64,000 bases of DNA from Candidatus Bathyarchaeota archaeon (GCA_963780185.1 CAWABA010000001.1:224001-288000); one strand, 5' to 3'. Shown: positions 15,468 through 43,168, numbered from the stretch's first letter. The notes: generated from the letters alone by a model not told the origin. A program made the numbers and translations.

Positions 15468-15520
15468 ATCAAATGGGACATTCGCGGTCTAACTTGTAAC
15501 AAATTAGTCACAATGTTTAA
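15468..15520 (+). promoter_or_regulatory. Bipartite operator/promoter element, copy 1 (upstream of the lysW operon)
   Basis: ATCAAATGGGACATT-N13-GTAACAAATTAGTCACAATGTTTAA, near-identical to 43116-43168. Confidence 0.8.
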
Positions 15521-15613
15521 ATTTGGAATTTAATTATTTGAAAGTTCATTTCCGACAAATACTAAAGTGACGAATAAAAAATGATTAAACCTGTAAATTC
15601 AAATTCCCAAGGC

Positions 15614-15787
15614 ATGAAGGCAAAATGTCCTGACTGCGACGCTGAGCTTGATGTTCCGGTTGACGCAGAGAAAGGAGAAATCCTTAGCTGCCCGGGTTGC
15701 GGGCTTGAACTTGAAGTTAAGCAAGTTAAAGGCGGATGCGTGGACCTTCAAGAATTAACAATTGAAGGGGAAGACTGGGGAGAATAA
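15614..15787 (+). CDS. lysW: Amino-group carrier protein LysW
   Basis: CPDC...CPGC zinc ribbon and C-terminal EDWGE. Confidence 0.97.
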   Translation: MKAKCPDCDAELDVPVDAEKGEILSCPGCGLELEVKQVKGGCVDLQELTIEGEDWGE

Positions 15788-15848
15788 GCAGTATTCACCG
15801 CTAAGTCTTCATTTAACTTAGTTTTTTAAGTATCTTTGGTGAATAGCG

Positions 15849-17033
15849 ATGAGCATTGCCCTTTTGTATGAGCGGTCTGAAAACGACGAAAACGGCATCA
15901 AGTTGACCGCGCAGCAACTAGGCATAGACTTGACTTTTCTGCCCTTCAGAAAAATCGCTCTCTCAATTTCTAAAGAAGGATTTTCAGCTAAGACAAAAGG
16001 GAAGGACTACACCGGCATAGTCAAAGACGTCGCGGTTGTTCTTAACCGTGCTCAAAGCAAAAACCGTCGGCTACAAGCCTCCTACCTCATGGAGCAGCTT
16101 GGTAAAAAAACCCTAAACACATCACAAGTCGAATTTGTATGCTACAGCAAACTGCGCACGCTGCTGAATCTCTGGAAGGAAGGTTTGCCGATTCCCAAAA
16201 CCGTTTACGTTCCATGCGACCCAACCGACGCCCTCAAGAACGGGAAAGAAATCCACAACGAGAAAGACATAGCTGAACTGGTTCAGCAAGAGATCCCGCT
16301 GTCAGACGGTATCGTAATTAAGGCTGACGCTGGAACGCATGGCAAGATGATTATGCTGTCTAAAACCAGCGAAGAGCTTATCGCCAACATCAAGGAAACG
16401 AAGCCGTCAATCATTAACCCAGTCGGCGTAGTCGCGCAGGAACTCGTTGAAAAATGGTTTTACGACCTGCGAATAATTGTCTCTAAAGAAAAAGGTAAAC
16501 AACCCGTTTGCTACCCCATTTCGATGGCGCGGGCTGGCTTTAAAGATTTTAGAACAAACACTTTCTTGGGTAACTTGGTTTTCGGTGCCAAGCTTCCGAG
16601 AAGCGTTCAGGAACTGTCGGTGAAATGCGGCAAAACCCTTGGCAAAGGCAGTGAAGCATGGATTTTTGCGTTGGACGCGATGGTGAACGTTAAAGAAAAC
16701 AAGAGCGTGGATGACGCTTACGTTAAGGGTCAGTTGGATAAGGCTGGGCAGGCTTTTTTGGCTGTTCAAAAGGTTAAGCAAGATGAAATGCGTCTGACTG
16801 ATTTTTCAGTATGGACCACCAAGCTTGAGAAGGCTTTCCAGCTCTACGCGAACAGCGAGTGGTACGGAAATACCAAAAACGTCCTTGACGAGAGCATAGA
16901 AAAAAATAAGAGCGCCCTTGTGTTTCATGAATCAAATTCGTGTCCCGAGTTCTGGGAGAACACACGGCTTGCAACGGGGCTTAATGTTGCGGTTCCCTTG
17001 TTGAAGTGTGCTCAAAGCTTAATTGACCGTTAA
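15849..17033 (+). CDS. Divergent ATP-grasp ligase in the LysX/ArgX position
   Basis: Lies between lysW and lysY; IPKT, QELV...DLRI, FRTNT, ESNSCPEF motifs; 394 aa. Confidence 0.75.
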   Translation: MSIALLYERSENDENGIKLTAQQLGIDLTFLPFRKIALSISKEGFSAKTKGKDYTGIVKDVAVVLNRAQSKNRRLQASYLMEQLGKKTLNTSQVEFVCYSKLRTLLNLWKEGLPIPKTVYVPCDPTDALKNGKEIHNEKDIAELVQQEIPLSDGIVIKADAGTHGKMIMLSKTSEELIANIKETKPSIINPVGVVAQELVEKWFYDLRIIVSKEKGKQPVCYPISMARAGFKDFRTNTFLGNLVFGAKLPRSVQELSVKCGKTLGKGSEAWIFALDAMVNVKENKSVDDAYVKGQLDKAGQAFLAVQKVKQDEMRLTDFSVWTTKLEKAFQLYANSEWYGNTKNVLDESIEKNKSALVFHESNSCPEFWENTRLATGLNVAVPLLKCAQSLIDR

Positions 17034-17052
17034 TTAAAATGGCAAAGGAAGG

Positions 17053-18114
17053 ATGGCAATGTTGAGAATTGGAATAATAGGCGGTTCAGGCTACGTTGGC
17101 AGCGAACTTCTGCGGCTGCTGCTTCTTCACCCGCAAGCAGAGGTAACTACGGTTACTTCACGGCAAAGCGCAGGGGAATTTGTTTTTAACGTTCATCCGA
17201 ACCTGCGGGGCTTGACCCAGCTCAAATTCGTGCCTCTAGACATTGCTGAGTTGCAGAAAAACTGCGACTTGATATTTACGGCGACGCCGCATGGGGGCTC
17301 GGTTAATCTTGTTCCCAAACTTTTGGAGGTTGGCTTAAAGGTAATTGATATGAGTGCTGATTTCCGCCTCAAAAAACCAGCCGACTATGAAACTTACTAT
17401 GGTTGGAAGCATGCTCACCCTGAAATGCTAACAGACGCTGCGTACGGGTTGCCAGAGCTTCATCGGGAAGAGATAAAAAAAGCCAAACTTGTAGCTTGCC
17501 CAGGCTGCGAGGCAACAGCCGCCATTTTAGGTTTAGCACCAATAGTGAAGGCTGGGTTTGTTGACAAAGACAAAATCGTGGTAGACCTAAAGGTTGGCTC
17601 TTCTGGAGGCGGAAGTAAACCGTCGCCTGCTTCTCATCATCCAGAGCGGTCTAGTGGAGTGCGTCCGTACAAGGTTGTTGGGCACCGCCACATCGCTGAA
17701 GTTGAACAAGAACTGGATGCCCTGTCCAATGAGCCAGTGATAATCTCTTTCACTCCGCATGCGGTAAACATGGTTCGCGGCATACTTGCAACAATTCACA
17801 CTTTCCCAAAACAGAAACTGGAAAACAAGGATCTTTGGCGTGCTTTCCGCGGAATGTACGGCAATGAACCGTTTGTGCGTATAGTGAAGTATCAGAAGGG
17901 GCCTTACCAGTTGCCTGACCCCAAAGTGACGTTGGGCACGAATTTCTGCGACGTAGGCTTCGAGATTGATGAGCACGCGAATCGGCTTCTGCTTTTCTCC
18001 GCACTCGACAACATGACCAAGGGCGCTTCAGGCCAAGCCGTCCAATGCATGAACATCCAGCTAGGCATTGACGAGACTACTGGCTTGAAGAGCACTGGTT
18101 TTCACCCGATGTGA
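17053..18114 (+). CDS. lysY: [LysW]-aminoadipate/glutamate-phosphate reductase (LysY/ArgC)
   Basis: GGSGYVGSEL, ACPGC, HHPER, HRH..E, DNMTKGASGQA. Confidence 0.9.
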   Translation: MAMLRIGIIGGSGYVGSELLRLLLLHPQAEVTTVTSRQSAGEFVFNVHPNLRGLTQLKFVPLDIAELQKNCDLIFTATPHGGSVNLVPKLLEVGLKVIDMSADFRLKKPADYETYYGWKHAHPEMLTDAAYGLPELHREEIKKAKLVACPGCEATAAILGLAPIVKAGFVDKDKIVVDLKVGSSGGGSKPSPASHHPERSSGVRPYKVVGHRHIAEVEQELDALSNEPVIISFTPHAVNMVRGILATIHTFPKQKLENKDLWRAFRGMYGNEPFVRIVKYQKGPYQLPDPKVTLGTNFCDVGFEIDEHANRLLLFSALDNMTKGASGQAVQCMNIQLGIDETTGLKSTGFHPM

Positions 18115-18929
18115 CCGCTATGCTGCTTGTTATCAAGATGGGCGGAAGCATACTCAAAGAAGGCGCATCCCAAGACCTAGTTGCAGACCTCAAAGAAGTA
18201 GCGAAAACCAACAAAGTCGTGCTGGTCCACGGCGGCGGCGTAGAAGTCACCGAAATAGCCTCAAAACTTGGAAAAGAACAGAAATTCATCGTTTCCCCCG
18301 AAGGCTTCAGAAGCCGCTACACCGACAAAGAAACCATCGAAATCTACACCATGGTTATGGCTGGCAAAATCAACAAACAAATCGTTTTAGCCCTGCAAAG
18401 CCAAGGCATAGCAGCAGTCGGCATAACAGGGTTGGACGCAGCCACCCTAAAGGCGGAGCGAAAAACGAAGCTTATAGCAGTGGACGAGCGGGGACGCAAA
18501 AGAGTCCTCGACGGCGGCTACACAGGAAAAATAACCGAGGTAAACACTGAACTGGTTAATCTTCTACTTGAGAAAGGTTACGTGCCGATAGTGACACCTA
18601 TCGCGCTAAGCCAAGACTGTGAACCCCTAAACGTGGATGGCGACCGAACGGCGGCGATAATTGCAGGCGCGTTGAAAGCGGACCGTTTGATTCTTCTAAC
18701 GGACGTGAAGGGCCTGATGCTTCGCGGCGAATGTGTTCCCAAGATAGCCGCCACCGAAGTTAAAGAGGTCTTGGGCAGCATTGGGCAAGGCATGAGCACC
18801 AAGGTGCATGCGGCGCTTGAGGCGCTAAACCAGGGCGTCAAAGAGGTTCTGGTTACCGCAGGCACGGGGAATGAACCTATAAGTTCAGCTTTAAATCATA
18901 AGGTCGGTACAGTGATAACTGGTGAATGA
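18111..18929 (+). CDS. lysZ: [LysW]-aminoadipate/glutamate kinase (LysZ/ArgB)
   Basis: KMGGS, VHGGG, SPEGFRSRYTD, GGYTGKI, LNVDGDR. Confidence 0.92.
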   Translation: MTAMLLVIKMGGSILKEGASQDLVADLKEVAKTNKVVLVHGGGVEVTEIASKLGKEQKFIVSPEGFRSRYTDKETIEIYTMVMAGKINKQIVLALQSQGIAAVGITGLDAATLKAERKTKLIAVDERGRKRVLDGGYTGKITEVNTELVNLLLEKGYVPIVTPIALSQDCEPLNVDGDRTAAIIAGALKADRLILLTDVKGLMLRGECVPKIAATEVKEVLGSIGQGMSTKVHAALEALNQGVKEVLVTAGTGNEPISSALNHKVGTVITGE

Positions 18930-20136
18930 GCAAGAAATAATTGATATTGAAACGCGGTACATGGCGAATGTTTTCTCCAAAAAACCCGTTGTGTTAACCG
19001 ATGGCAAGGGCGCCCTTGTCTGGGATATTTACGGTAAAGAATACGTTGACTGCTCAACGAGCTACGGCGTCGCGTTGCTGGGGCACTGTCACCCACGAGT
19101 TGTCGCTGCAATCCACGCTCAGGCAGACAAACTCATCACATGCCACGGAGCCTACTACAACGATAAACGCGCAGAATTCGTTGACAAACTTGTCCACATA
19201 ACGCCCAAAGGCTTAGACAAAGTCTTTCTATCCAATAGCGGCGCTGAATCAGTCGAATGCGCCATTAAACTCGCCCGCAAATACACGGGCAAACCAGAAA
19301 TCATCGCTTTGATGGGGGCGTTCCACGGCAAAACCATGGGTGCCCTGTCCGCGACGTGGGACAAAAAGTACCGTGAGCCTTTCATGCCTCTGGTTCCAGA
19401 AATCAAGCATGTCGCCCCTGACAGCGCAGACAGAATCCGCGAGGCTATCAGCGAGAAAACGGCGGCGGTTCTTATGGAGCCTATCCGCGGTGAAGGCGGC
19501 GTTCGGGTTCCTCCTGACGGATACCTGCAAGAGGTACGCAAGATATGCGATGAAAAGAATGTTTTGCTTATTTTCGACGAAGTGCAAACGAGTTTCGGGC
19601 GCACGGGTAAGTTGTTCGGTTGCCAAAACTGGGATGTTACGCCTGACGTGATGTGTTTGGCTAAGCCGTTTGCAGGCGGATTGCCCATCGGCATAACAGT
19701 CGCCAAGGAAAATGTTATGTCAGCCTTCAAAGTTGGTGAGCATTCAACTACGTTTAGCGGCAGCCCCTTGGTCTGTGCTGCTGGGTGCGCGGCGATAGAT
19801 GCTCTTGTTGAAGAAAAGTTGACTGAGCGCGCGCTGCAAATGGGCAGCTACTTTAAGGCTGAGCTGGTGCGGTTGCAAGCTAAGCATAAGGTCGTTAGGG
19901 AAGTTCGCGGTTTAGGTTTGATGCTAGGCATGGAGCTGCGTGTCGATGTTTTGAATGTGATTTTGAAGTCGGCTAAGCAGGGTGTTTTGGTGCTGGATGC
20001 TGGGCGGACCGTGGTTCGGCTGCTGCCGCCTTTGGTGATTTCGAAGGACCAGATTGACCGCGCCGTCATGGTGCTGGATGAAGTTTTGGGGGATGTGGAT
20101 AATGAGCGAGCAGGAAGCAGTGCGGTTTCTAACTAA
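18922..20136 (+). CDS. lysJ: [LysW]-semialdehyde aminotransferase (LysJ/ArgD)
   Basis: Class III PLP motifs NSGAES, FHGKT, FDEVQT.FGRTG, LAK. Confidence 0.9.
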   Translation: MNEQEIIDIETRYMANVFSKKPVVLTDGKGALVWDIYGKEYVDCSTSYGVALLGHCHPRVVAAIHAQADKLITCHGAYYNDKRAEFVDKLVHITPKGLDKVFLSNSGAESVECAIKLARKYTGKPEIIALMGAFHGKTMGALSATWDKKYREPFMPLVPEIKHVAPDSADRIREAISEKTAAVLMEPIRGEGGVRVPPDGYLQEVRKICDEKNVLLIFDEVQTSFGRTGKLFGCQNWDVTPDVMCLAKPFAGGLPIGITVAKENVMSAFKVGEHSTTFSGSPLVCAAGCAAIDALVEEKLTERALQMGSYFKAELVRLQAKHKVVREVRGLGLMLGMELRVDVLNVILKSAKQGVLVLDAGRTVVRLLPPLVISKDQIDRAVMVLDEVLGDVDNERAGSSAVSN

Positions 20137-21229
20137 CCTGCTGGGCATTTACAGCCCTTCAGGGAAAGAAGAAGATGCCGCTAACTTTTTAGCGGTTGAA
20201 ATGAAAAAGATGGGTTTTGAAGTCGGCAAAGACACAATAGGAAACGTAATCGGAGTCGTCGGCGAAGGCGAACCCGTCATTTTGCTGTGCGGTCACATGG
20301 ATACGGTGGCTGGGCATCTGCCGCTTCGCATTGAAGAAGGCAAAATCTACGCCCGCGGCGCCGTCGATGCGAAGGGTCCGCTTGCCGCCATGATTATGGC
20401 TGCGGTTTCTGCTTCGAGGGTGCCTGGTTTTGTAGGTAAAGTTTTGGTTGCAAGCGTGGTTGAAGAGGAAGCGACCAGCCGAGGCGTCAAGCACCTTATC
20501 ACCCAAGGCATTAAAGCCGACTACGCTATTTTCGGTGAACCCAGCGGCGTCGAAAACATAACCGTCGGGTACAAAGGGCAAATCCAACTCAAAATTGTTT
20601 GTAAAACCGAGACGGGGCACTCGTCTACGCCGTGGCTCTACGATAACGCGTTGGAGAAGGCGTATGAGGTTTGGGAGCAAATCAAGGTCGCTTCAGCTTT
20701 TCCGTCACTAGACCCTTCTGAGAGCCCGTTCAACGCGGTTACTGCCTGTTTAGTTAAGGTTGCAGGCGGCAGGGCGATGTCGGTGGTTCCTTTTGAGGCT
20801 GAAATGAACGTTGACGTGCGGGTGCCAATCCAGTTTTCGACGGCTCAGGTTTTTGAGCAGATTGAGAAGATTATCGGGAAGTATCAGGTTGCTAACCCCA
20901 AGGTTTCAGTTAAAGCAACCGTGCTGGATACTGTGGAGCCTTTTGAGGTGAACAAGGCTTCGCCGCTTGTCCACGTGTTTTCTTCCTCTGTGCGAAAAGT
21001 GCTAAACAAGCCAGCTACACTTCTGCGCAAGACGGGCACAGGAGACATGAACATTCTGGGAAAAGCCATGAACCTGCCCATCGTAACTTACGGACCAGGC
21101 AACTCCCGCCTTGATCACACACTGGACGAACACATCGACGTAAGCGAATACCTAACTGCGATTCAAGTCTACAAAGAAACCCTGCTCAAACTATCTGAAC
21201 TCTACAACAACAAGAACCCCACCGAGTAA
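20102..21229 (+). CDS. lysK: [LysW]-lysine/ornithine carboxypeptidase (LysK, M20 family)
   Basis: GHMDTV, RGAVDAKGP, VEEE, GEPS, TGTGDMN, YGPG..LDHT; start at ATG 20102. Confidence 0.92.
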   Translation: MSEQEAVRFLTNLLGIYSPSGKEEDAANFLAVEMKKMGFEVGKDTIGNVIGVVGEGEPVILLCGHMDTVAGHLPLRIEEGKIYARGAVDAKGPLAAMIMAAVSASRVPGFVGKVLVASVVEEEATSRGVKHLITQGIKADYAIFGEPSGVENITVGYKGQIQLKIVCKTETGHSSTPWLYDNALEKAYEVWEQIKVASAFPSLDPSESPFNAVTACLVKVAGGRAMSVVPFEAEMNVDVRVPIQFSTAQVFEQIEKIIGKYQVANPKVSVKATVLDTVEPFEVNKASPLVHVFSSSVRKVLNKPATLLRKTGTGDMNILGKAMNLPIVTYGPGNSRLDHTLDEHIDVSEYLTAIQVYKETLLKLSELYNNKNPTE

Positions 21230-21259
21230 AGCTAACTAGTTTTTGTGGTTGGTTTTGGT

Positions 21260-21323
21260 TGTAAAAATCGGGTACCCCTTTTGAGTCGTGCTCTGTCTCT
21301 CTCACAGCTACCCTCCTCGGTCT
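21260..21323 (-). repeat. Second copy of the GGGGTACCC/CGAGGAGGG intergenic element
   Basis: Minus strand has AGACCGAGGAGGGTA...AGGGGTACCCGATTTTTACA; both modules also occur at 4276-4340. Confidence 0.6.
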
Positions 21324-21441
21324 AATAGATGAACCAAATATGTCCCAAATATGAATCAGCATGCCTCAACGTGCACTCGCCCCGCGTTTTTCCATGTGGA
21401 ATAAGTCTTTTTCAACATCAAATGACCGAATTCGCTTGGTT

Positions 21442-23367: not shown

Positions 23368-23562
23368 AATTCATGTGCCTCCTAAAGCATTGCCCGGTGC
23401 CGAACCGACAATAATATGGACATTTGCCATGCATTTATCTTTTATCCCATATTCCCCCAGAAGCATCCCCTATGTTGGTTAACGTAAAAAAGTGGTTGGA
23501 AGCTTCCTTTAGGCAAGGTTTTTGAGCTTTAATGTTACTCTTAATTCTGAAGGTTATTTGTT

Positions 23563-23883
23563 TTGAGCGATGGTTTTGTTGTTTCGATGAAAGAAGACGA
23601 GCTCGGGGAAGGCAAAATGAAAGCCATCCGGCTCAAAGGTAAACCTATCTTGCTGGTAAGGGTCGGCGGCGAAGTTTATGGTGTTTCAAACGTTTGCCCT
23701 CACGCAGGCTGCAGCTTCCAAGCAGGCATCCTGACGGGTTACACGTTGATGTGTCCTTGTCACGGCTGGAAATTCGATGTGCGAAACGGGCAATACCAAG
23801 AAATCCCCAATGTGAAGCTGTCTTGTTACCCCTGCAAGGTCGAAAATGGCAGAATATTTGTGGAAATCGCGAAAGACAAGTAA
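23563..23883 (+). CDS. Rieske [2Fe-2S] ferredoxin
   Basis: CPHAG...CPCHGWKFD. Confidence 0.92.
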   Translation: MSDGFVVSMKEDELGEGKMKAIRLKGKPILLVRVGGEVYGVSNVCPHAGCSFQAGILTGYTLMCPCHGWKFDVRNGQYQEIPNVKLSCYPCKVENGRIFVEIAKDK

Positions 23884-23983
23884 AACTACTTTTGCTTCCG
23901 TAAGAAAAACGGCGCAAATCCTTGAGAACCAAGATAGAAGAAAAATCCTTTAGCGCAATAGGGGGAAATATGCCTAAGTTAGG

Positions 23984-24958: not shown

Positions 24959-25179
24959 ATTGGTCTTTATTGGCATGCGCAAAAGCCGCTTATATTTTTT
25001 GCTTATTACAAAGGCTATTTGATAAGGAAATTTGCAAAGGTAGTCGACGTTTTTCTTCGCCAATTCAGACGGCAAGGTACTCTTGGTTTTCTTGAGTAAA
25101 GCGAGCGGTGTGTCGATAGTGTTTAATATTAAAATAGGATGAATTAAGTAACTAATGCAATCGTCATGGGTGAGGATTA

Positions 25180-25605
25180 ATGATGGGCGAAAATAACATG
25201 GATAATTTAGAAATCGAGATTGACCCTCATGCTCTTGAATTCCTTAAGAAAAGCGGCGACGTCTTCGTCCTAACAGATGTTCAAAACCCACAGTACTCCT
25301 ACTACCGGATTAAAGGTTTTGACTCGAACCTTAACGTCAAGTTCGAAGAATTCGTGGAAGTCTGCAAAGGATACCCTGAAGAAGGACCAGCTGACCCAAA
25401 CAACCCAACCCCAGAATTTGTCGTCACCGTATTTAACGTCAATTCGCCCTCAAGCACCATGCCTTCTAACTTGGCATTTTACGTCGCGAAATCTGGTTTC
25501 AAGACGATTGACGACTGGTTAAAAAGCCTAAAAGCCGATGAAATTCCTGATTGCGAAAGCGGATACAAAAAGACGTTCTATCTCTATCGCATACAAACCT
25601 CCTAA
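25180..25605 (+). CDS. Hypothetical protein
   Basis: 141-aa ORF with GGTGAGG SD; no recognised family. Confidence 0.65.
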   Translation: MMGENNMDNLEIEIDPHALEFLKKSGDVFVLTDVQNPQYSYYRIKGFDSNLNVKFEEFVEVCKGYPEEGPADPNNPTPEFVVTVFNVNSPSSTMPSNLAFYVAKSGFKTIDDWLKSLKADEIPDCESGYKKTFYLYRIQTS

Positions 25606-25730
25606 AACCGCTCGGGCTCAAAATTCCCCATTGCGGGACTCGTTGCAACTCACCTTTTCTGAATGGAAAATTTTAAAAGCCATCGTTCAATGTGGTTTAT
25701 TCAATCTAAGTTTATTGAAGATGGACAAAA

Positions 25731-29967: not shown

Positions 29968-32070
29968 GTGAAAACAGGAAGTTCACTTTCTATGCAGCCG
30001 AAACAGGAACCTAAGCCTAACAGGCTCATCAACGAAAAAAGCCCTTACCTTCTCCAGCACGCCTACAACCCAGTGGACTGGTACCCTTGGAGCCAGGAAG
30101 CTTTGGATAAAGCCAAAGCGGAGGACAAACCAATTTTCCTCAGCATAGGCTACTCGACTTGCCACTGGTGCCACGTCATGGAAATGGAGTGCTTCAACGA
30201 CAAGCAAGTTGCGGATTTACTGAACTCAGCGTTTGTATGCATTAAGGTTGACCGGGAAGAAAGACCCGACTTGGACGCTTCGTACATGGCTGTTTGTCAA
30301 GCTATGGGCAGAAACTGCGGCTGGCCCCTCAACATTATAATGACGCCCAAGCTGAACCCGTTCTTTGTCCAAAGCTACATACCTAAACATAGCCGACCCG
30401 GCATAATCGGCATGCTGGATCTTGTGCCCCAAGTCACACAAATATGGAAAACACAGCGTCCCCAAATGGAAATGGTTGGCGCCGACATCAAAGCCCGCAT
30501 AGAAACCATGGAAAAACGAACACCGCAAAATCAACTTAGCGCCGAGGTCCTGCAGGATGGCTTTGACCGACTCAAACTGGATTACGACAAAGAAAACGGC
30601 GGATTCGGCTCAGCACCAAAGTTTCCAACCCCACATAAGATCCTGTTTCTTCTGCGTCTATACTCTCACACGGAGAGAAAAGTGCATTGTCAATTGCTGA
30701 AAATACTCTTCGCAAAATGCGTTTGGGCGGAATCTTTGACCAGCTCGGTTTTGGCTTTCACAGATACAGCACCGACCCAGAATGGCTGATTCCCCACTAC
30801 GAAAAAACCCTTTATGACCAAGCGCTGCTGACGCTGGCGTATGTTGAGGCATATCAGGTGACAGGCGCCCCTAAGTTTAAGATTACTGCAAAGGAAACAT
30901 TGGAATACGTTCTTCGCGACTTGGCTGCAGGTGGGGAAGGCGGGTTTTATTCGGCTCAGGACGCTGACTCGGAGGGTGAAGAAGGAAAATTTTACCTCTG
31001 GACAGTCGATGAAGTTCTCGATGTTCTGGCTCCTGCAGATGCTGAACTGGCAGTTCATCTCTACGGTCTGAAGCCCGAAGGCAACTTCCCTGACGAGATG
31101 GGTCATGCGAACGGCAAAAACATATTGCACATTGCGGAGCCGCTTGAAGACCTTGCAGCATACAAGGGTTTAACAGTCGATGAACTGATTATGCAGATGG
31201 GCAAAATCCAGAACGCCCTTTTTGAGGCAAGAAAAAAACGGATTGCTCCAGCGGTGGATGACAAGGTCTTAGCTGACTGGAACGGCCTGATGATTGCGGC
31301 TTTAGCCAAAGCGGGCAGCGTCTTCGATAATTCAGCGTATATTGAGGCGGCGATAAAGACAGCTGATTTTTGCTGAACCGTATGAGGAAAGGTGATGTGC
31401 TGTATCATCGCTACGCGAAAGGCGAAGTGGCTGTAGAGGGATTTCTGGATGACTACGCCTTCACAGTGTACGGGCTGGTACAGCTGTATGAGGCAACGTT
31501 CAGTGAAGCGTATCTTCAAGCAGCCGCTGACCTGACTAAAAACATGATAAGCAGGTTTTGGGACCAGCGACAACGGCGGATTTTACCAAACACAAAGCGT
31601 GCAGGCGGGCATGCCGAAAATCAAACAGCTCTATGACGGTGCAACTCCTTCGGGCAACTCGGTGGCGCTGCATGACCTACTGTGGCTTAGCCGCTTAACC
31701 AACGAGCCCACGTACGAGCAGATGGCTAAGCAGATGACTGAAATCTTCGCTGAAGAAGTCGAAGGCGCACCCGACGCATACATCTTCTTCCTATCAGCAC
31801 TTGACTTCCAACTCGGCCCATCCTACAGCGTTACAGTAGTCGGTGACTTAGAAGGTAAGGATACGCTGGAGATGCTCAAGACGCTAAGGCGCCTGATACC
31901 TGCCGACCGCCGTAATCCAGCTTAAACGGCCCGACAACGCAGGCTTAGGCTATCGGCAAATCGAAGGAAAAGCAACCGCTTACGTATGCCGCGACCAAAC
32001 ATGCCTACCCCCCACCAACAGCCTCACGGTTATGCTGGAGCAACTGGGCATAAAGGAAGAGAAAGGTTAG
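29968..32070 (+). CDS. Thioredoxin domain/(alpha/alpha)6 protein, YyaL/SPATA20 family; 4 frameshifts (probably sequence errors)
   Basis: [62 protein letters not shown]; shifts near 30672, 31370, 31565, 31896. Confidence 0.88.
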
Positions 32071-32225: not shown

Positions 32226-32320
32226 TCGGTTGCCATCGGCGCCCCGCGCACAACGGAACAATGATGCTTGAGTCTCTACGCGCCTGCAGCCTTAGCATAG
32301 TAAATTACGGGTTTGCTTGC

Positions 32321-33305
32321 TTAGAACGTTGACAGGTACTGCTGCGGGGTAGGCCACTTATCAGGAATCTTTCTGGCGCCCGCCTCAATCTTTGTTATGC
32401 CGTTGATTCGGGAGATTTCGTCTTGAATTTCAAACGATTGAGCTGTGTCTCTAATCATCGCCGAGAACTGCAGGTCGTAGTCGCCGCTTGTCTTCGTAAT
32501 AATTATGACATCTGGGATTTTAGCGAGCGACTCAACCAGCGGGTTAGACACGTCGCCGGGCGTGGTGAAAGCAATGTTGAAGTCCAAAATGGAGGTGTAC
32601 CCAATCCTATTCGGATTAATCTGAATTGAAACCTTCATCGCGCCTTTTTCCTTAAGCTTATGATACCTCTTAACAACCGTATCCGTTGACAACTCCATTT
32701 CCCGTAGCGATCTTGCTAAACGACGCCCGCCCATCAACCGCAAGCTTAGCAACTATCTTCTTATCCAACTCATCAATAACAACTCTCTCACTTACCTTAC
32801 TCGCGGCTGCACTTGGGTTTTGTTGATTTGTTTCGGCGTGGGTTTTCTGGGTTTGGGCGAAATCCATGTTTTCAGGGATGTTTCTAACACCCGTCCAGAT
32901 GTAGCTTTTTAGCCCCGTAGTCGGAAGCTTCCGCCGAATAACCTGCTTCACATGATCCAACTCGTTAAGGTTCCTCAGCGTCACAACCCCACGAATATTA
33001 TAAACACTATTATACTGCCGGTAAGCACGGACCTCAATTATTTTTCCAATAAGCTCCATTGACTGCTCAAGCTGCTGCGCCTCAACGCTTAAAAGCAAAG
33101 TAGCCAACGCATCAAACCCGAAAACACCAAAATTAATCTGCACAGTCGCACCGCTAATTATCCCCTTCTTCTCCATCGCCCTGCAGCGTTTCCACACTTT
33201 GTTTTTCGACACACCGCATTGGTCGGCTATTTCGTAATAGCCTGTTCGGCCGTCCCTCAGCAGACTTTTGAGGATCTTCGAATCGAGTTCTTTGATTTTA
33301 AGCAC
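32321..33305 (-). CDS. Double-domain Lrp/AsnC regulator, one frameshift near 32706
   Basis: Two HTH+RAM units; joins ORFs 32670-33305 and 32321-32752; ends KWPTPQQYLSTF like its neighbour. Confidence 0.8.
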
Positions 33306-33445
33306 TGTTCCTTCCTTTTGTCTTATTTAGTGCGGATTTTCATGATTTAAAAATTTCGCATTTTCTCGCATTATGGCGCTTGAAACTGCCAATACTACTC
33401 GATTTCTGGCGAAATTGTTAAGTCATGAACGGCAACAATAACCTG

Positions 33446-34387
33446 TTAAAATGTGGATATATACTGGCGTGGACTTGGCCATTTTCCCACTCTGTCCAAT
33501 GCTCCTATTTCCACTTCCATTTTCGTTATTCCCTGAATTTTCCCCAGTTGCTTTTGAACCGAAAGTAACTGACCCAAATCTTTAACCATTACATATATTT
33601 GCAAGTCCGAGTTCCCAGTTGTTTTCATAATGCTTATAACATCGGGTATTCTGCTAATTTCTTCGATAATTTCTAAAGAATTTTCATTTGAGGTCACTAT
33701 GAAGAAAATGCAGAGGGCTTCGTACCCGATCTTGTTTGGGTTAACTTGAATTGTGACTTTCAAAACTCCGTTTTTCTTTAGCTTTTCATATCTTCTTTTG
33801 GCGGTGTCGGATGAAATTCCGATTTCTCTGCCAAGCGTCTCCATGGATACTCGTCCATTCTCAGAAAGTTTATCAGCTATTTTATGGTCAATACCATTGA
33901 GAATCATTGGTTGGGGGCTACTTCTCTGAGCTTTTACGTGATAATTGACTGCTTCCTCTCTTTTTTCCGAATTAGCACTTATTATTGCCAAGTTGTAATT
34001 CATTTCTTTAACGTCTGTCCAGATTGCGGTTCTCATTTCCAAAATCGAAAAGCATCTTTTGAATTCGTCTTTAATGACGTTTAACTTTTCAAGTGTTTCA
34101 AGGATTACGATTACATCAAAGTTTCCTTTGACTCCTCTGTTGTAGAATGAGTAAATCTCTGGCATTTTCTTCAGGAAACTGACAAGTTGGCCTTCTTGCT
34201 TCGAGTCAATGTTAATTAAAATGTGCGCTACTGCCTTGAAACCGAAACTCTTGTAGTTAATGTGTGTTGTCGCACCGGTAATTATTCCAGTTTCTTGCAT
34301 TTTGCTGAGGTTTTTTTTTACACTTTCTTTTGTTTCGCCTATTTTTTGGGCAACTTGATTATCAGTCTGGCGTCCGTCTGCTAGCAA
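33446..34387 (-). CDS. Double-domain Lrp/AsnC regulator
   Basis: Two HTH+RAM units; ends KWPSPRQYISTF; frame open upstream to about 34441. Confidence 0.85.
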   Translation of the reverse strand: MLADGRQTDNQVAQKIGETKESVKKNLSKMQETGIITGATTHINYKSFGFKAVAHILINIDSKQEGQLVSFLKKMPEIYSFYNRGVKGNFDVIVILETLEKLNVIKDEFKRCFSILEMRTAIWTDVKEMNYNLAIISANSEKREEAVNYHVKAQRSSPQPMILNGIDHKIADKLSENGRVSMETLGREIGISSDTAKRRYEKLKKNGVLKVTIQVNPNKIGYEALCIFFIVTSNENSLEIIEEISRIPDVISIMKTTGNSDLQIYVMVKDLGQLLSVQKQLGKIQGITKMEVEIGALDRVGKWPSPRQYISTF

Positions 34388-34679
34388 CTCTTTGAGGATT
34401 TTGGCTTGGATCAGGCTTATTTGCTCGGTTAAGACTAGTATCCCTCATTGACATTCATGGTACTTTTTTCATTCTATATAAATTAATCGCACATTTTTCT
34501 TTTCAATTTTTGGAAAGTCCATGTAATCGTTTCTCTCACGTAATCTGACACAGCCTATGTTATTGCCTTTTTTGGCAAAAAATAGGGATTTTGTTCGATT
34601 GTTCTGGAATTTTTACAAAGTCTTATATAAACTGCAAGCAACAGCTTGTGCATCGAATTAAGGAGAGAGAATAGAAATA

Positions 34680-37574: not shown

Positions 37575-37606
37575 ACTGCAACCAAAAAACAACAACCCAA
37601 AATAAG

Positions 37607-37634
37607 GTAAGTTTCCAAACTTACTTCTTTTTTT
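37607..37634 (+). terminator. Hairpin plus T-tract after the surface protein gene
   Basis: GTAAGTTT-CC-AAACTTAC followed by TTCTTTTTTT. Confidence 0.55.
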
Positions 37635-38141
37635 AATTTAATTATCTGAAACCACGTGATAGTTGGATTCTTGCGAGCTGTTGCTTGACGATCTGACTCT
37701 TTGTTTAGTGATTTTTCTTACACAGTTGCCCCTTTTCATGTGCGATGGCAATTTTATTTGGTAATTTTGGGATTTTTGCAAAGTCTTAAATATAAAATTC
37801 CTGAAACCCTTGAACACCGAAAAGGTAGATGAAAAAGAGATGCGGCTGAGAAGGCTCTGGTTAATTCGAAATTGCAATAGCAAGTGTGATTTAGATTTTC
37901 TTTTTTCTCCTTAAATTAAAAGAATCATCTCCAGAGCCTCAGCAATCCTCTCTCTTTCTAAATCTCCAAAATTAACACGCATGACGGTTAATTCAAAACT
38001 TTTGCCTCAAGATTCCCTCTGAGGCTTGCGCGAACCTAGCCAAGAGACAAAACAACAGCACCGAGCATCCAAAAAAGCTAAACGAAGGGCTTCAAATAAT
38101 CCAAATAGCAATTCTCGTTAATGTGGAGCGGGCGAACCTGA

Positions 38142-38651
38142 ATGTTTAGAAACAGAGAACAGATGTGGCGGCGGATTCAGGAGTTAGTCCAGAAGTTCAA
38201 GGAGAGGGGCGCGACAACCCCTGAGAAAGCGTTGACTGCGCAGGAGTTGGGTTTGCCGCCGCGTTTCGAGCAAGCTATGCGTCGAAGACTCGGTCAAACA
38301 GGCATCTTCGTTGAAACTAACGGCAAATACTACCTAAACGAGGAGCGGCTTAGGCAAATCCAGCAGCAACATGCAGATGGGGCAGGGGGCGGGGGCGGCG
38401 GGTTTAGCAGGCAGGCTGCTCCAGCTTGGATACGCTACGGTGGAATTTTGCTTGCGTTGCCGCTCGGCATCATCGTTGTTGCTTTTTTAGTGTTTTATTT
38501 TAACATTTACAGTGGCGCCGGATACTTTCCAGGCGAAATAATCCTCATCTTGCTTGTTGTCTTGGTGGTGCTGTTTGTTGTTAGGATGCTGTTCTGGCGG
38601 GCAAAGAGAAAATACCTGCGCGACCGCTGGATGCAAAATAAAACGGCTTAA
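38142..38651 (+). CDS. Hypothetical protein: small soluble N-domain, Gly linker, two TM helices
   Basis: 169-aa ORF with clear domain structure. Confidence 0.7.
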   Translation: MFRNREQMWRRIQELVQKFKERGATTPEKALTAQELGLPPRFEQAMRRRLGQTGIFVETNGKYYLNEERLRQIQQQHADGAGGGGGGFSRQAAPAWIRYGGILLALPLGIIVVAFLVFYFNIYSGAGYFPGEIILILLVVLVVLFVVRMLFWRAKRKYLRDRWMQNKTA

Positions 38652-38704
38652 TTGGGACAAAGAAAAGGTTTGGGGTGATGCCCGACTTATTTTTGCGTTG
38701 GTTT

Positions 38705-40116
38705 CTATATTTTGTCTAGGTTGAATGCTTCGTGGATGGCTCGTACAACTGCTTCGCCGTCTTTTTCTTTAACGACAAACGAAATGTTTAGTTCTGAGCT
38801 GCCCTGCGCGATCATTCGGATGTTGATGCCTTTTTGGGCGACGGTTGTGAATATTTTTGAGGCTACGCCTAAGGTGCCTTTCATGTTGGCGCCGACAACC
38901 GCGATGACTGCAACGTCGTCTTCTGAGGAGATGTCGCTTACTAAGCCACCTCTGTCCAACAACGCAATTTCAAGATTGCTAATAGCCCTGCCTAAAAGCC
39001 CCCGCCTAATAATCATTGATATGTTGGCTTCTGAGGCTGCGGTGGATATCATCATCACGTTGATGTTGTTTTTTCCCAGCACATCAAACACTTTAGCGTA
39101 GCTTCCAGGCGCCCCAACCATTCCCGCCCCGCTAACGTTGAGCATGGCAACATCCTTTAATCATCGCCACAGCTTTCACGGCTTCCTTAGCGTCGGCGTC
39201 AGGTTCCCCCGTAATCAGCGTGCCCGGGTTTTCCGGGTGAAAAACGCTCCGTATCCTCACAGGGACGTTTTCTTTGATGACGGGTTCCAGAGCTCGTGGA
39301 TGCATGGCTTTTGCGCCGAAAATCGCCATTTCAGCCGCTTCCTGATAGCTAAGATGCGGCAGCATTTTGGCGGATGGAACTATCTTGGGGTCCGTGGTCA
39401 TTATGCCGTCCACGTCCGTCCATATCCACACCTCGTCAACGCCCAACGCAACGCCCAGAATTGTGGCTGTGTAATCTGACCCGCCCCTTCCCACCGTGGT
39501 TACGACTCCGTTTTGGTCTGCGGCGATGTAGCCTGTCACAACCGGGATGACGCCTTTTTCCAGCAGCGGACTGAGCCTTTCATGGATTAGGTGCGTCGTG
39601 AAGTTCATTAGGGGGTCTGCTTCGCCGAAGTTTGAGTCGGTCACGATGCCCGCTTCTTTGCCCGTGAAGCATTGCGTTTCAATTTTGCGGTCTTTTATGG
39701 CTCCCCAAACGATGGGTGCCGAAAGCCGCTCGCCGAACGACAGGACATAATCTTTTGATTTCGGCGTCAACTCGCCCACGTAGCAGATGCCCGTTAACAC
39801 TTTTTCCAGTTCCGCGATGGTTTTCTCCGTGATTTGGGTTACTTCTTCCTGTATCGGCTTGCTGGTTATGGCTGATTCGATTGCCGCCAGATGCTTCTTT
39901 AAAAGGGTGGCTGGTGAAGGCTTGAACATGTTTTTCGTCGTTTTTCTTTGCGTGCTCGGCGACTTCGATTAGGCTGTTAGTTACTCCTGCCAACGCGGAT
40001 ACAACTACGGCGATTTTGCAGTTGTTTTTGGCGTTTTGAGTCACTATGTCGCTTACGTGGCGTATGTTTTCGCCTGTGGCTACGCTGCTTCCGCCAAACT
40101 TCATGACGATTTTCAT
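38705..40116 (-). CDS. lysC: Aspartate kinase with two ACT domains; 2 frameshifts (near 39912 and 39156)
   Basis: MKFGGSSV, SFGERLS, GRGGSDYTA, WTDVDG, QGSSELNISF distributed across three ORFs. Confidence 0.9.
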
Positions 40117-40119
40117 TTT

Positions 40120-41164
40120 CTAGGACTCCGAGTTTTCATATAGCATTCGATTTGCCAACTTATGTCTAATATCTAGGAGGTCTCTTAAAACTGCACTGGC
40201 AGTCTCGATTCCGCCTGCGCCCTTGCCAATGATGGTTTCTTCGCCCGCATATTCAGTGAAGAAAGTTACTGCGTTCAAGACTCCGCTCACGCAAAGGGGG
40301 CTGTTTTTCGCTATTTCCATAGGTTTCACTGATGGCTCCGTCGCTGTCAACTGAGCCGATGAGTTTGATTGTGTTTCCTCTCTTTGACGCTTCATCAAGC
40401 GCCTCCAGCGAAACTCCGCGGATACCCGTGATATCAACGTCTTTAAGAGTAATTTTCTTGTTGAGTATCCAGTTCGCCAAGATGACTACTTTGCATGCGG
40501 CGTCGAATCCGTCAACATCCATCGATGGCTCCCGTTCAGCGTACCCGAGCTTCTGAGCGTTCGTCAAGGCTTCTTGGAAGGTTATGCGGTTTTGAGCCAT
40601 TTCAGTCAGGATGTAGTTGGTTGTGCCGTTTAGGATGCCTCGTATGGCTAAGATTTTGTCTCCTGCCAAGCAACGTTTCGCAAATTCGAGGACGGGTGTT
40701 CCGCCGCCGACGGTTCCGCTGAATCGAAGATACACGTTGTTGTATTCTGCGAGTTCCGTGAGGGCTGGCATGGCTAAGGCTAAGGGTCCTTTGTTGGTTG
40801 TGACGACGTGTTTTCCTGTTTTGAAGGCTTTAGTTATGTGGGATAGGGCTGGCTCAGCGTTTTTGATGTTGACAGGTGTTACTTCCACAACTACTTCTGC
40901 CTCAACCGACTCGATAACATCTGACACCGACATTCCCGGGTGACCAAACTCAGGGTCTTTAGATATCGGGAAACCTCTTTGCCTGATTTCAGCTAGTTTT
41001 TCTGGGCTAAGACCTTTCGGGTTTATGACTGCGCCGTCTATGTCCGCTATGGCGACGATTTTTGGGTTAAACCCGTAATCCTTAGTTTTCTCCACATACC
41101 TCTTCGCCAAAATGGTGGTAACGCTTTTCCCAACTACTCCGAAGCCGACTAAGATTATCCTCAT
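40120..41164 (-). CDS. hom: Homoserine dehydrogenase; frameshift near 40338
   Basis: GFGVVG, TNKGPL, GILNGTTNYIL, DVDGFDAACK, then GKGAGGIETASAV in the second frame. Confidence 0.9.
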
Positions 41165-41171
41165 TTCATCT

Positions 41172-42422
41172 TCACCTTGCAAGAATGACTCTTTGAGTTT
41201 TCAACCCCAGAGCCTGCTCAATCGTCATCATGTCCGCGTCTACCTCAACAGGCTTCTCACATTGTTTTATGGCTGTGTCTGGGTCTTTTAAGCCGTGCCC
41301 CGTGGTTATGCATACAACTCTCTCGTCCTTGTCTATAACGCCGTTCTGAACCAGCTTCTTTAGTCCCGCGATTGACGAGGCGCTTGCAGGCTCCACAAAG
41401 ATGCCTTCGATTCGCGCCAGCATCTTCTGTGCATCCAAAATTTCGTCGTCGGTAACGGTTTCAGCGGTGCCGTGCGATTCGCGGATGGCGTTGACGGCTT
41501 TTTTCCAGCTTACAGGAGCGCCAATTCGGATGGCTGTGGCGACTGTTTCAGGATGTTCAACAGGAATGATTTTGTCGCTGTTGGTTTTGATTGCTTGCGC
41601 GATGGGCGCCGACCCAGTTGCCTGTATGCCCGTCATCTTCGGCAGTTTCTTTATGAATCCCAGCTTGTGGAATTCGGTTAAGCCTTTCCAGACTGCGCTT
41701 ATGTTTCCCGCGTTGCCGACGGGTATTATGATTCTGTCTGGGACTTCGTAGTTGAGTTGCTCGCAGATTTCGTAGCCTAACGATTTTTGTCCTTCAATGC
41801 GGAACGGGTTAATTGAGTTAAGTAGGTAAATGCTCTTGTGTTTCTCCGCCAGCTTGAGGACGAATTCTAAGGATTGGTCAAAGTTTCCGCGGACTTGCAG
41901 GACTTTGGCGCCGTGGATCATGGCTTGCGCGAGTTTGCCGTAGGCAATCTTGCCTGAGGGAATTAGAACGGTGCATTTTATTCCTGCCCTTGCAGCATAA
42001 GCAGCTAAGCTGGCGCTGGTGTTTCCTGTTGAAGCGCAAATCACATGTCTGGCTCCAAGCTCGACGGCTTTTGTGACTCCGACGGTCATGCCTCGGTCTT
42101 TGAAGCTGCCTGTGGGGTTCTCGCCTTCATTTTTAACGTACACTTCTTTGAGCCCTACTTCTTCGCCCAGATGACGGGAACGATGCAAGCCAGTTCCTCC
42201 TTCGCCAAGCGTGACTACATTTGCGGTTTCATGTATGGGCATGAAGTCGCGGTACCGCCAAACGGAGAGAGGCTTTGTTTTCCAGTCGCTGCCTTTGAGG
42301 GTTTGCGCTAGCTCTTTGAAATCAAATTTTATCTCTAGAATGTCTCCGCATTTTTTGCAGAAGTAGACAATCTCGTCGATGTCGTATCTTGTTTTGCAGT
42401 TAATACATTCTTGATGTACCAT
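41172..42422 (-). CDS. thrC: Threonine synthase
   Basis: NPTGSFKDRG, ASTGNTSAS, PVGNAGN, TGHGLKD. Confidence 0.95.
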   Translation of the reverse strand: MVHQECINCKTRYDIDEIVYFCKKCGDILEIKFDFKELAQTLKGSDWKTKPLSVWRYRDFMPIHETANVVTLGEGGTGLHRSRHLGEEVGLKEVYVKNEGENPTGSFKDRGMTVGVTKAVELGARHVICASTGNTSASLAAYAARAGIKCTVLIPSGKIAYGKLAQAMIHGAKVLQVRGNFDQSLEFVLKLAEKHKSIYLLNSINPFRIEGQKSLGYEICEQLNYEVPDRIIIPVGNAGNISAVWKGLTEFHKLGFIKKLPKMTGIQATGSAPIAQAIKTNSDKIIPVEHPETVATAIRIGAPVSWKKAVNAIRESHGTAETVTDDEILDAQKMLARIEGIFVEPASASSIAGLKKLVQNGVIDKDERVVCITTGHGLKDPDTAIKQCEKPVEVDADMMTIEQALGLKTQRVILAR

Positions 42423-42521
42423 CTTGTTAGGTCTCCCTTTGGCAAGCGCCTTAGCTACGTTAATGAAGGCTTCTGTGAATTATCTACTCAGACGTTATTA
42501 ATTTTGTTGCTTGCATTCCCA

Positions 42522-43100
42522 CTAGCCTACAAGGTTGGATAAGGTTTCATAGACTTTCAAGCTGTCTTTTTTCTCAATAACAATGATAGTTTCAGTCCAG
42601 CAGGAAATGAACTCAACGATGTTCACGCTTTGCTCAGCCAACAGAGTAGCTATGAATGAGACAACTCCAGGCGTAGCCTCCAACTCCTCAGGCGAATGCA
42701 CAACAATCATGGTGCAGTTGTCATGTTTCATGAGGGCGTTTACTCGTTCAGGCAAATCGCTTCTGTCAAGCAAATAAACGAATTTATCAAGCAAATCCAC
42801 CTTCATGCCCGTTTTGGAATTAAATTCTTTACCCGTGATTATAACGGATTTGCGGTCGTACACGGCTATGCTGCTGCGTTTGAGAAGAAGAAGCACTTTT
42901 TCTTCTCTTTTCTGCTTGTGCTTCTGCAGCTCCTCCGAGTAGCGGCGCAGAGCGGCTTTTATCGCGCTTGGGTCATTGGTTTTTAGTTCTTTCTGTATCT
43001 GCCTTGCCAACTCGCTGAGGTTCACGATGCCTTTTTCGAGGGCTTCAAGTAGGTAAGGCTTGTTTTTTAGGTAATTTCTGACTCTTTGAGCTACACTCAT
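42522..43100 (-). CDS. Protein with putative N-terminal HTH and C-terminal ACT domain
   Basis: NLSELARQI...SAIKAALRRY helix pair; ATPGVV...VNIVEFISCWTE ACT-like C-terminus. Confidence 0.75.
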   Translation of the reverse strand: MSVAQRVRNYLKNKPYLLEALEKGIVNLSELARQIQKELKTNDPSAIKAALRRYSEELQKHKQKREEKVLLLLKRSSIAVYDRKSVIITGKEFNSKTGMKVDLLDKFVYLLDRSDLPERVNALMKHDNCTMIVVHSPEELEATPGVVSFIATLLAEQSVNIVEFISCWTETIIVIEKKDSLKVYETLSNLVG

Positions 43101-43115
43101 GTCACTCCAAGATGT

Positions 43116-43168
43116 ATCAAATGGGACATTTAAGTTTTCTTAAGTAACAAAAAAGTCACAAGGTTTAA
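43116..43168 (+). promoter_or_regulatory. Bipartite operator/promoter element, copy 2 (between the HTH-ACT gene and argG)
   Basis: ATCAAATGGGACATT-N13-GTAACAAAAAAGTCACAAGGTTTAA. Confidence 0.8.

Follow-up and report, generated by a model that had tools for sequence, protein, structure and literature searches.

We studied a 64,000-nucleotide stretch of DNA from a Candidatus Bathyarchaeota archaeon (GCA_963780185.1, CAWABA010000001.1:224001-288000), here called the window, and analyzed a 53-bp element that occurs in it twice: at 15468-15520, between a gene for a LysM-like regulator and the lysW operon (site 1), and at 43116-43168, between a gene for a DUF7523-ACT protein and argG (site 2). Our interpretation is that the element is a composite operator of two boxes, that one amino-acid-sensing regulator would set both halves of arginine synthesis through it, and that the protein bound to it is probably not the LysM-like regulator; to this statement as a whole, which we draw from sequence comparison, we assign a probability of about 0.6. 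The narrower claim that the element is a functional protein-binding operator shared by both promoters is stronger, and we regard it as highly likely. Because the same boxes are conserved at both promoters, the lysW and argG operons very probably share one regulator. In the mechanism that we propose, the same operator stands ahead of lysW-lysX-argC-lysZ-lysJ-lysK and of argG-argH-carAB in a clade of Bathyarchaeales, and one sequence-specific, probably amino-acid-sensing regulator would set the transcription of both together, placing the ornithine branch (lysW operon) and the branch from citrulline to arginine with its carbamoyl-phosphate synthesis (argGH-carAB) under joint control.

Two boxes shared by the lysW and argG promoters

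Read directly from the window, the two sites are identical at 40 of 53 bases, and this identity falls into two blocks, ATCAAATGGGACATT (15/15) and GTAACAAAWWAGTCACAAKGTTTAA (22/25; box 2 and the TATA box), on either side of a 13-nt spacer in which 3 of 13 bases agree. The near-identical bipartite element that an earlier note on this DNA had reported at both loci was thus recovered on re-reading, and the identity continues 3 nt leftward (TGY), which places box 1 at 15465-15482 and 43113-43130. Taken alone, two copies of an exact 15-mer in 64 kb are no surprise, as up to three mismatches give four matches where 1.98 are expected; the probability of a second block that matches at 22 of 25 positions at an equal offset is about 2e-10. 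The box 2 pattern has two matches in the window and none in 100 shuffles, and the combined 19-position pattern gives two matches even with three mismatches allowed, against 0.05 expected. When position weight matrices (PWMs) built from 50 related sites were run over the window, box 1 scored 32.4 bits at argG and 31.9 at lysW and box 2 scored 33.5 and 29.5 bits, respectively, while the next-best scores in the window were 6.5 and 12.2 bits and shuffled sequences reached 14-16.

With the G of box 1 numbered as position 0, box 1 spans -1 to +16, box 2 spans +29 to +47, and the TATA box begins at +50; the two boxes, each of about 18 bp, start 30 bp apart (about three helical turns) and leave 12 bp between them. 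At the lysW promoter, all features lie on the plus strand: box 1, TGCATCAAATGGGACATT (15465-15482), appears as TGCAYCAAATGRGACATT in 22/22 lysW-type regions; the spacer (15483-15494) is fixed in length and variable in sequence, with 18 different 9-mers at +15 to +23 among 22 regions; and box 2, TGTAACAAATTAGTCACAA (15495-15513), abuts the position of the B recognition element (BRE) with its 3' end. The heptamer TTTAAAT (15516-15522) that follows is, judging from its position and conservation, the TATA box of the lysW operon (TTTAAA at +50 in 22/22 lysW-type regions), and the lysW ATG at +115 is kept in relatives.

The argG promoter repeats this plan on the plus strand, with box 1, TGTATCAAATGGGACATT, at 43113-43130, box 2, AGTAACAAAAAAGTCACAA, at 43143-43161, and a probable TATA box for argG-argH-carA-carB, TTTAAG, at 43164-43169 (TTTAA[AG] at +50 in 30/30 argG-type regions). 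In the window, argG starts near +113, with ATA at 43227, and the first aligned ArgG residues of relatives lie at +128 to +130. A second hexamer, TTTAAG in the spacer (43129-43134, minus strand), probably serves as TATA box of the divergent DUF7523-ACT gene, so that box 2 stands about midway between two divergent TATA-like boxes. We read the hexamer in this way, and the gene as nearly leaderless, because TTTAA[AG] is constant at +15 to +20 in 30/30 argG-type regions (the same positions are variable in the lysW type) and because, in relatives, 11-17 nt separate the element from the DUF7523-ACT start codon to its left; box 1 at argG would then be situated between the TATA box of the divergent gene and its start site. 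One relative (L035, CAWGYA010000008.1) has an intact argG element, including the spacer TTTAAA, and lacks the divergent DUF7523-ACT gene, with a codirectional open reading frame (ORF) of unknown family upstream.

Related sites were gathered by one pattern scan over 185,579 species genomes, with a pattern of 19 positions drawn from those that are common to box 1 and box 2 in the window (G.A.CAAAT..G.CA-N15-G.A.CAAA...G.CA), and the resulting loci were sorted by tblastn against 13 window proteins. The scan returned 95 loci: 21 of lysW type, with the LysM-like gene diverging from the element and lysW-lysX-argC following it; 29 of argG type, with argG-argH following and, in the divergent position, the DUF7523-ACT gene, which adjoins 28 of the 29; and 45 without such neighbors. 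The last, many of them tandem repeats and mostly from bacterial records, are chance matches. The 50 real loci come from 45 assemblies (5 with both sites, 16 with the lysW site only, and 24 with the argG site only), and 49 of them are titled Bathyarchaeota, Bathyarchaeia, or uncultured archaeon. A locus from a bin with the bacterial name Limnocylindrales (L022, DATHCJ010000026.1) carries the element with DUF7523-ACT/thrC/argG/argH at 82-93% identity and has probably been filed there through a binning error. An occurrence at many unrelated promoters, which would have spoken against a regulon, was not seen: all 50 Bathyarchaeal loci belong to the two contexts, and a third target context was not found among them at the stringency of the scan.

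We judged conservation at the columns that the search pattern had left free. Thirty-four columns carry the same base in at least 90% of the sites in both classes, 15 of them unforced, with the consensus TG.A.CAAATG.GACATT ... GTAACAAA...GTCA.AA..TTTAA. The GTAAC and GTCA of box 2 are invariant in 52/52 sites, including positions outside the constraint of the pattern, and the distance to TTTAA[AG] is equally constant (52/52). Identity at unforced columns (within the lysW class, within the argG class, and between the classes, in that order) was 0.77, 0.95, and 0.66 for box 1; 0.86, 0.99, and 0.70 for box 2; 0.86, 0.87, and 0.76 for the BRE/TATA region; 0.65, 0.85, and 0.32 for the spacer; 0.36, 0.36, and 0.22 for the left flank; and 0.59, 0.74, and 0.17 downstream of the TATA box. 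Third codon positions of lysW and argG have an identity of 0.58-0.61, and across 68 nt at the argG element the window does not differ from its closest representative, although DNA identity between the two is 87-92%. Since the unforced columns and the distance to the TATA box are conserved while the flanks and the lysW-type spacer drift, the boxes are under selection at both loci. The phylogenetic footprinting called for in the earlier note thus found the boxes conserved at orthologous promoters in 45 assemblies.

Candidate binders of the element

The DUF7523-ACT gene (42525-43100, minus strand; 192 amino acids [aa]; Pfam), which diverges from argG, encodes the best candidate that we can name for a protein binding both boxes; we propose it tentatively, and a factor unlinked to either locus is about equally or more likely. 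Its candidacy follows from the combination of a basic N-terminal domain with an ACT sensor, from its divergence from argG, and from an apparent promoter of its own under box 1, a layout that resembles that of a classical local autoregulated regulator. The family is large (1497 matches at 90% clustering; 859 clusters at 50% identity) and apparently archaeal, and its members, of about 200 aa, are named "ACT domain-containing protein," "aspartokinase," or "hypothetical" in databases. In an alignment of 70 members, the N-terminal domain has the conserved motif GIxNxSxLARxI...AIKxALRR, and residues 1-75 carry a net charge of +1 to +15, mostly +5 or more, in the 40 members listed, with a neutral to acidic remainder. 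The C-terminal half matches ACT_7 in 65/70 members (E up to 0.001), an ACT-type ligand domain as in NikR, and its profile matches aspartokinase ACT domains and, weakly, the arginine sensor CASTOR1. An Atlas search with a 93% identical homologue returned clusters of the same family only, with nothing usable for residues 1-80, and longer forms with fused domains did not turn up, which counts as weak evidence. One 237-aa relative has a SAP domain ahead of the N-terminal domain.

Behind the DUF7523-ACT gene, the minus strand continues with thrC and the genes for homoserine dehydrogenase and aspartokinase. From the DUF7523-ACT stop codon to the thrC start, the sequence includes a conserved, promoter-like AGCAnCAAAATTAATAAT block (42491-42511, minus strand) and, after it, GGAGA; as thrC has a conserved promoter-like block of its own, AAAATTAATAAT, along with the GGAGA ribosome-binding motif, thrC-hom-aspartokinase probably have their own promoter, and the DUF7523-ACT gene looks monocistronic. 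A bolder proposal, about which we are more doubtful than about the candidacy itself, is that the DUF7523-ACT proteins, which are widespread in archaea and have a strongly basic, helical N-terminal domain, are a new family of amino-acid-sensing transcription factors, one Bathyarchaeales member of which would bind the boxes as an oligomer with two DNA-binding heads 30 bp apart, control lysW and argG-carAB, repress its own gene, and so represent an arginine regulator of archaea. Our search of the literature collection found no report on DUF7523.

The foremost rival explanation, which we consider unlikely, is that the LysM-like Lrp/FFRP regulator binds both boxes and controls lysW and argG, as LysM of Sulfolobus acts upstream of lysW. 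Its gene (14925-15332, minus strand; Pfam; ORF 14925-15425) adjoins the site and diverges from lysW in 21/21 lysW-type loci, and it probably starts at M32 of the long ORF (15332), because in-frame stops precede MDEKD in 4 orthologues. Archaeal Lrp-like activators (Ptr2, LysM, and Ss-LrpB) typically have one site adjoining the BRE or a few base pairs upstream of it and further sites two or three turns upstream (PMC2995911), and our 52/52 sites have this layout, with box 2 ending 5 bp short of TTTAA and the two boxes starting 30 bp apart. Sulfolobus LysM, moreover, is described as answering to lysine and arginine and as having many targets (PMC3597687), and both boxes have an AAT or AAA center, as FFRP sites do.

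What speaks against this explanation is the sequence that the LysM-like protein would be expected to recognize. Aligned to Pyrococcus FL11 (2cyy_A and 1ri7_A), it has the recognition residues Tyr24, Ser34, Glu35, Gly36, Ala37, and Arg39. In archaeal FFRPs, C-G-A at bases c, d, and e is contacted, as in LysM and Ptr2, by Tyr/Glu/Arg, T at base a by Ser34/Ala37, and A at base b by Gly36 (PMC2715240), so that the residues and this contact pattern together predict the site TACGA-WWW-TCGTA. Boxes 1 and 2 contain no CG and hence no dyad with the FFRP bases c and d; the 13-mer of box 2 at lysW agrees with TACGAWWWTCGTA at 9/13 positions, and nothing in the argG regions exceeds 8-9/13. In Sulfolobus LysM, the C and G positions of its sites (GTWCG-N5-CGWAC) are the most discriminating (PMC3597687).

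A box of the predicted type does occur outside the 53-bp element, where TACGTTTTTCGTT (15402-15414) matches TACGA-WWW-TCGTA at 11/13 positions, a level that just one other site in the 64 kb reaches. It is conserved at lysW and absent at argG: T[AG]CG-N5-CGT is found at -57 to -68 in 18/22 lysW-type and 1/30 argG-type regions, and CG-N5-CG at the same place in 20/22 lysW-type regions. No Lrp gene adjoins the 29 argG-type loci. Given residues that predict a CG site, boxes without CG, and a separate CG box conserved at lysW, the LysM-like protein most likely acts at an operator of its own, and the shared element would belong to another factor. Covariation between recognition residues and boxes was not found, the loop GLSEGA[VI]R being invariant in the 17 of 22 orthologues that could be read. 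The idea that the LysM-type boxes are phased with the element was dropped, as the spacings (31, about 36, and 30 bp) do not give one phase. In about 8/22 relatives, a weaker second half-box stands about 31 bp downstream of the CG-type box. The block AAATTTAACGTTTTCC (15364-15381, minus strand), near-invariant in 22 lysW-type regions, is probably the BRE/TATA of the LysM-like gene.

Several observations weigh against our interpretation and against the DUF7523-ACT protein as the binder. The two-site layout matches that of Lrp-like activators exactly, which keeps an Lrp-type binder alive. Neither box is a clean dyad; the pseudo-palindrome TGTAAC-N6-GTCACA that the earlier note had seen in box 2 is weaker than claimed (5/6 in site 1 and 4/6 in site 2), and so is the dyad attributed to box 1, the arms of which are just 3 nt long. 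Box 1 and box 2, compared at offset 30, are identical at 11/18 and 10/18 positions (corrected P about 0.04), and the box 1 PWM gives box 2 only 4.3 bits; on these values, that the two are copies of one box is a weak possibility, and with so weak a similarity a single protein species on both is not assured. For the DUF7523-ACT protein, a profile search of the PDB matched the ACT part only and gave no solved structure for the N-terminal domain, hhalign of the 70-member alignment against Escherichia coli NikR gave a probability of 0.2, and weak Pfam PSK_trans_fac matches were confined to 6/70 members (best E, 0.0021). The sites were gathered with a stringent, window-derived pattern, to which diverged elements are invisible, and only 5/45 assemblies gave both sites. 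Finally, the argG-class intergenic region is conserved throughout (0.74-0.87), and that class alone cannot separate the boxes from their background; the between-class comparison therefore carries the argument. The earlier reasoning that conserved boxes around a diverged spacer indicate protein sites and not a duplication accordingly keeps its first part, the boxes, whereas its spacer part applies to the lysW class and fails for the argG class.

Mode of action, regulon, and genomic setting

With the typical archaeal TATA-to-start distance used to place the transcription starts, the center of box 2 would lie near -43 and that of box 1 near -73. From there, the operator would act through recruitment or occlusion of TBP/TFB at the lysW and argG promoters. 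The inferred positions favor activation that ceases upon binding of the end product, the mechanism proposed for LysM (PMC2995911); box 2, which leaves no gap before the BRE position, would make TFB occlusion, that is, repression, equally possible, and we hold the two signs at even odds. Of the co-repression put forward in the earlier note, we thus retain the co-regulation of both operons; repression as such is unsupported, -43 and -73 being positions of archaeal activators. Box 2 had also been said to cover the BRE. It abuts the BRE/TATA region, as claimed, ending 5 nt ahead of TTTAA, and abuts or slightly overlaps the BRE position instead of covering it. At argG, occupation of box 1 would in addition close the promoter of the DUF7523-ACT gene on the other strand, which appears to be nearly leaderless.

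Three further explanations would dispense with a regulator. The element could be a constitutive module of promoter strength, that is, an extended BRE or upstream element that is read by TFB/TBP or a chromatin protein and that confers equal basal strength without regulation. The fixed distance of box 2 from the BRE/TATA in 52/52 sites would suit such a module, as would a partial GTCACAA-N2-TTTAA at a third promoter-like site (51164), but with that site aside, the other promoter-like TATA sites in the window's 41 upstream regions are without the box, for which reason we rejected a generic BRE; box 1, about 45 bp upstream of the TATA box, is beyond the reach of TFB/TBP, and across 45 assemblies the element occurs only at two operons with linked functions. 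These points make the module quite improbable. Even less probable is a remnant of promoter duplication or gene conversion without a function of its own: two long blocks are near-identical within one genome, as such a remnant would be, but the spacer (3/13) and flanks agree no better than unrelated sequence, the two-locus arrangement with the same boxes is kept where third-position identity has fallen to 0.58-0.61, and the loci vary in distance and relative orientation (27.6 kb apart in the window and 21-37 kb in the same-contig pairs L007/L039, L065/L069, L011/L082, and L087/L053, with the sites of one same-contig pair on opposite strands). That the element works as RNA (leader, riboswitch, small RNA, or leader peptide) is hardly credible, since it lies upstream of the lysW and argG TATA boxes, has no Rfam 15 match at E up to 1 (one chance-level match, E 0.66, lies outside it), and folds no better than shuffles (z +0.51 and -0.21), and since the 8-codon ORF that runs from the box 1 ATG to the box 2 TAA at both sites in the window is shortened to 3 codons in relatives with ATGAGACATTAA, which disposes of a leader peptide.

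We return to the shared operator and its scope. The earlier note had predicted further hits at argF and at arginine transporters, and these did not appear: at scan stringency there are only the two target classes, and the PWMs found no further copy in the 64-kb window and, in 179 kb of related flanks, two marginal scores of 16 bits. No gene for ornithine carbamoyltransferase was found among the window ORFs scanned with Pfam. The partial match at 51164-51178, AGTCACAAACTTTAA, is similar to box 2 at its 3' end together with the TATA box, has one mismatch to the pattern, and lacks box 1 and the GTAAC half; a small ORF with DUF5678 (51296-51610) follows after about 120 nt.

The lysW operon itself (15581-21229, plus strand; Pfam and NCBIfam) consists of lysW, a lysX-like ATP-grasp gene, argC/lysY, lysZ/argB, lysJ/argD, and lysK, and thus combines an acidic-tailed carrier with kinase, reductase, aminotransferase, and hydrolase genes, as LysW/ArgW operons do. 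LysW ends in EDWGE and matches Pfam Zn_ribbon_LysW and the NCBIfam LysW/ArgW carrier model; with NF010662, the LysZ model for a bifunctional [LysW]-aminoadipate/[LysW]-glutamate kinase, the kinase scores 300 bits and exceeds the cut-off, and the scores for argC, at 434 bits, argD, and TIGR01902 do likewise. The LysX-like ligase (15849-17033) is a 394-aa ATP-grasp protein that scores 80 bits with LysX_arch (cut-off, 275.6), aligns with solved LysX/ArgX chains in its N-terminal part only (E about 6e-6), and is 73-89% identical across relatives. The aconitase-family gene at 50-1315 scores for LeuC-type and HacA-type models alike and does not decide between lysine and arginine. An operator shared with argGH-carAB argues for an arginine role, and the proposal that the LysW operon makes ornithine for arginine, put forward earlier for an ornithine/arginine pathway, fits this arrangement.

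If our interpretation is correct, the element would support annotating the LysW operon of these archaea as an ornithine/arginine branch. Bathyarchaeia are uncultured and abound in soils, peat, and sediments, and the element offers a defined 53-bp probe and two promoters that are expected to respond together, with two candidate genes, DUF7523-ACT and the LysM-like Lrp (the latter with its separate predicted site), that can be tested in vitro without culture. Should the DUF7523-ACT protein bind, 859 clusters of unknown function would gain a role.

The window, with a G+C content of 47.7%, belongs to a member of the Bathyarchaeales and encodes a formylmethanofuran-H4MPT formyltransferase and HcyBio and Lar-type genes. 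In the genome collection, it is most closely related to contigs of Bathyarchaeal metagenome-assembled genomes (nearest CAWGMZ010000020.1, at the 87-92% DNA identity given above), and one related locus (L021) belongs to Candidatus Bathycorpusculum. The argG-argH-carA-carB operon (43227-50439, plus strand; Pfam and NCBIfam; probable start codon ATA at 43227) is split by indels in each of its genes in the window, while the lysW operon is intact. Splits into two or three reading frames affect argG, argH, carA, carB, and the genes for aspartokinase, homoserine dehydrogenase, and a DUF255 thioredoxin-domain protein (38708-41182, 29968-31373, and 43242-50439), with breaks at 43867, 45019, and elsewhere; those in argG and argH coincide with 1-2-nt insertions that are missing from three close relatives. 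The breaks look like assembly indel error rather than biology, with pseudogenes as the remaining possibility. The argG gene appears to start with ATA: the codon 8-9 nt past a conserved GGGGGAG is ATA in 28/30 sequences, ATG in L069, and ACG in L063, and nine argG sequences have no in-frame ATG/GTG/TTG ahead of the conserved LAYSGG motif. Elsewhere in the window, we note a LarB/LarC/LarE-like nickel-pincer cofactor cluster (AIRC, Ni_insertion, and NAD_synthase-type domains; 6898-9847), an arsenic-resistance-like cluster (12089-14033) of an ArsR-family regulator (12089-12439), an ACR3/SBF-family transporter (12508-13641), and a low-molecular-weight phosphatase/arsenate reductase (13641-14033), and three adjoining ORFs with an AsnC-type helix-turn-helix and weak similarity to siroheme decarboxylase (AhbA/B) at 32324-34387.

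Comparison with known regulatory systems

Bacterial ArgR exerts coordinated end-product control through paired boxes of about 18 bp at arginine promoters, including those of argG and carAB, and its ARG boxes are two 18-bp palindromes that lie 2-3 bp apart and overlap the promoter. The element resembles this system in its pairs of boxes of about 18 bp at arginine promoters and differs from it in having an archaeal BRE/TATA promoter, 12 bp between the boxes, weak dyads at best, a position upstream of the TATA box, and two operons only. No Arg_repressor domain was found among the 42 + 27 + 34 (103) window ORFs scanned with Pfam. We know of no ArgR-type system for archaeal arginine biosynthesis, and our literature searches found none either; nor did they find, within the collection searched, a report of the element or of lysW/arginine regulation in Bathyarchaeota.

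In the layout typical of LysR-type regulators in bacteria, a divergent, autoregulated gene is combined with a distal and a proximal site, and NikR is a tetramer that joins a sensor to a DNA-binding part and recognizes a bipartite operator. At argG, a small divergent ACT-sensor gene has its probable promoter overlapped by the distal box, with the proximal box next to the promoter of the target operon. An oligomer with two DNA-binding heads would suit a pair of boxes that keep their distance while the spacer between them varies. The element departs from these systems in that neither box is an inverted copy of the other, and homology to LysR or NikR was not found (the hhalign probability of 0.2 against E. 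coli NikR).

The closest parallel at lysW is that of Sulfolobus LysM at lysWXJK, where, as here, the operator of the lysW operon lies upstream of the BRE/TATA (11 bp upstream in Sulfolobus; PMC3597687), a LysM-like Lrp gene stands beside the operon, and the end-product amino acid is the expected effector. The Sulfolobus box is described as a single 15-bp dyad, GTWCG-N5-CGWAC (PMC3597687), whereas the element has two CG-less boxes of about 18 bp, 30 bp apart, which are present at argG-argH-carAB as well; also unlike in Sulfolobus, the LysM-like protein is below the cut-off of its family (155.5 bits with the NCBIfam LysM model against 180), and its predicted CG site forms a separate third block (15402-15414). 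Ptr2 of Methanocaldococcus likewise has a site beside the BRE and a site two or three turns upstream on the same DNA face and activates by TBP recruitment (PMC2995911). Its consensus, GGACGA-WWW-TCGTCC (PMC2715240), is unrelated to the boxes, and as box 2, unlike the Ptr2 site, leaves no gap before the BRE position, occlusion would be as possible as recruitment. On the side of the pathway, LysW/ArgW clusters serve arginine only in Natrinema gari and arginine plus lysine in hyperthermophiles, with clustered lysW/argW, argX/lysX, argB, argC, argD, and argE-like genes as in the window (PMC10433800); unlike in the canonical pathway, the ligase here is a divergent 394-aa ATP-grasp protein. Set beside all of these systems, what appears to be new is a putative transcription-factor operator that would define a small amino-acid regulon.

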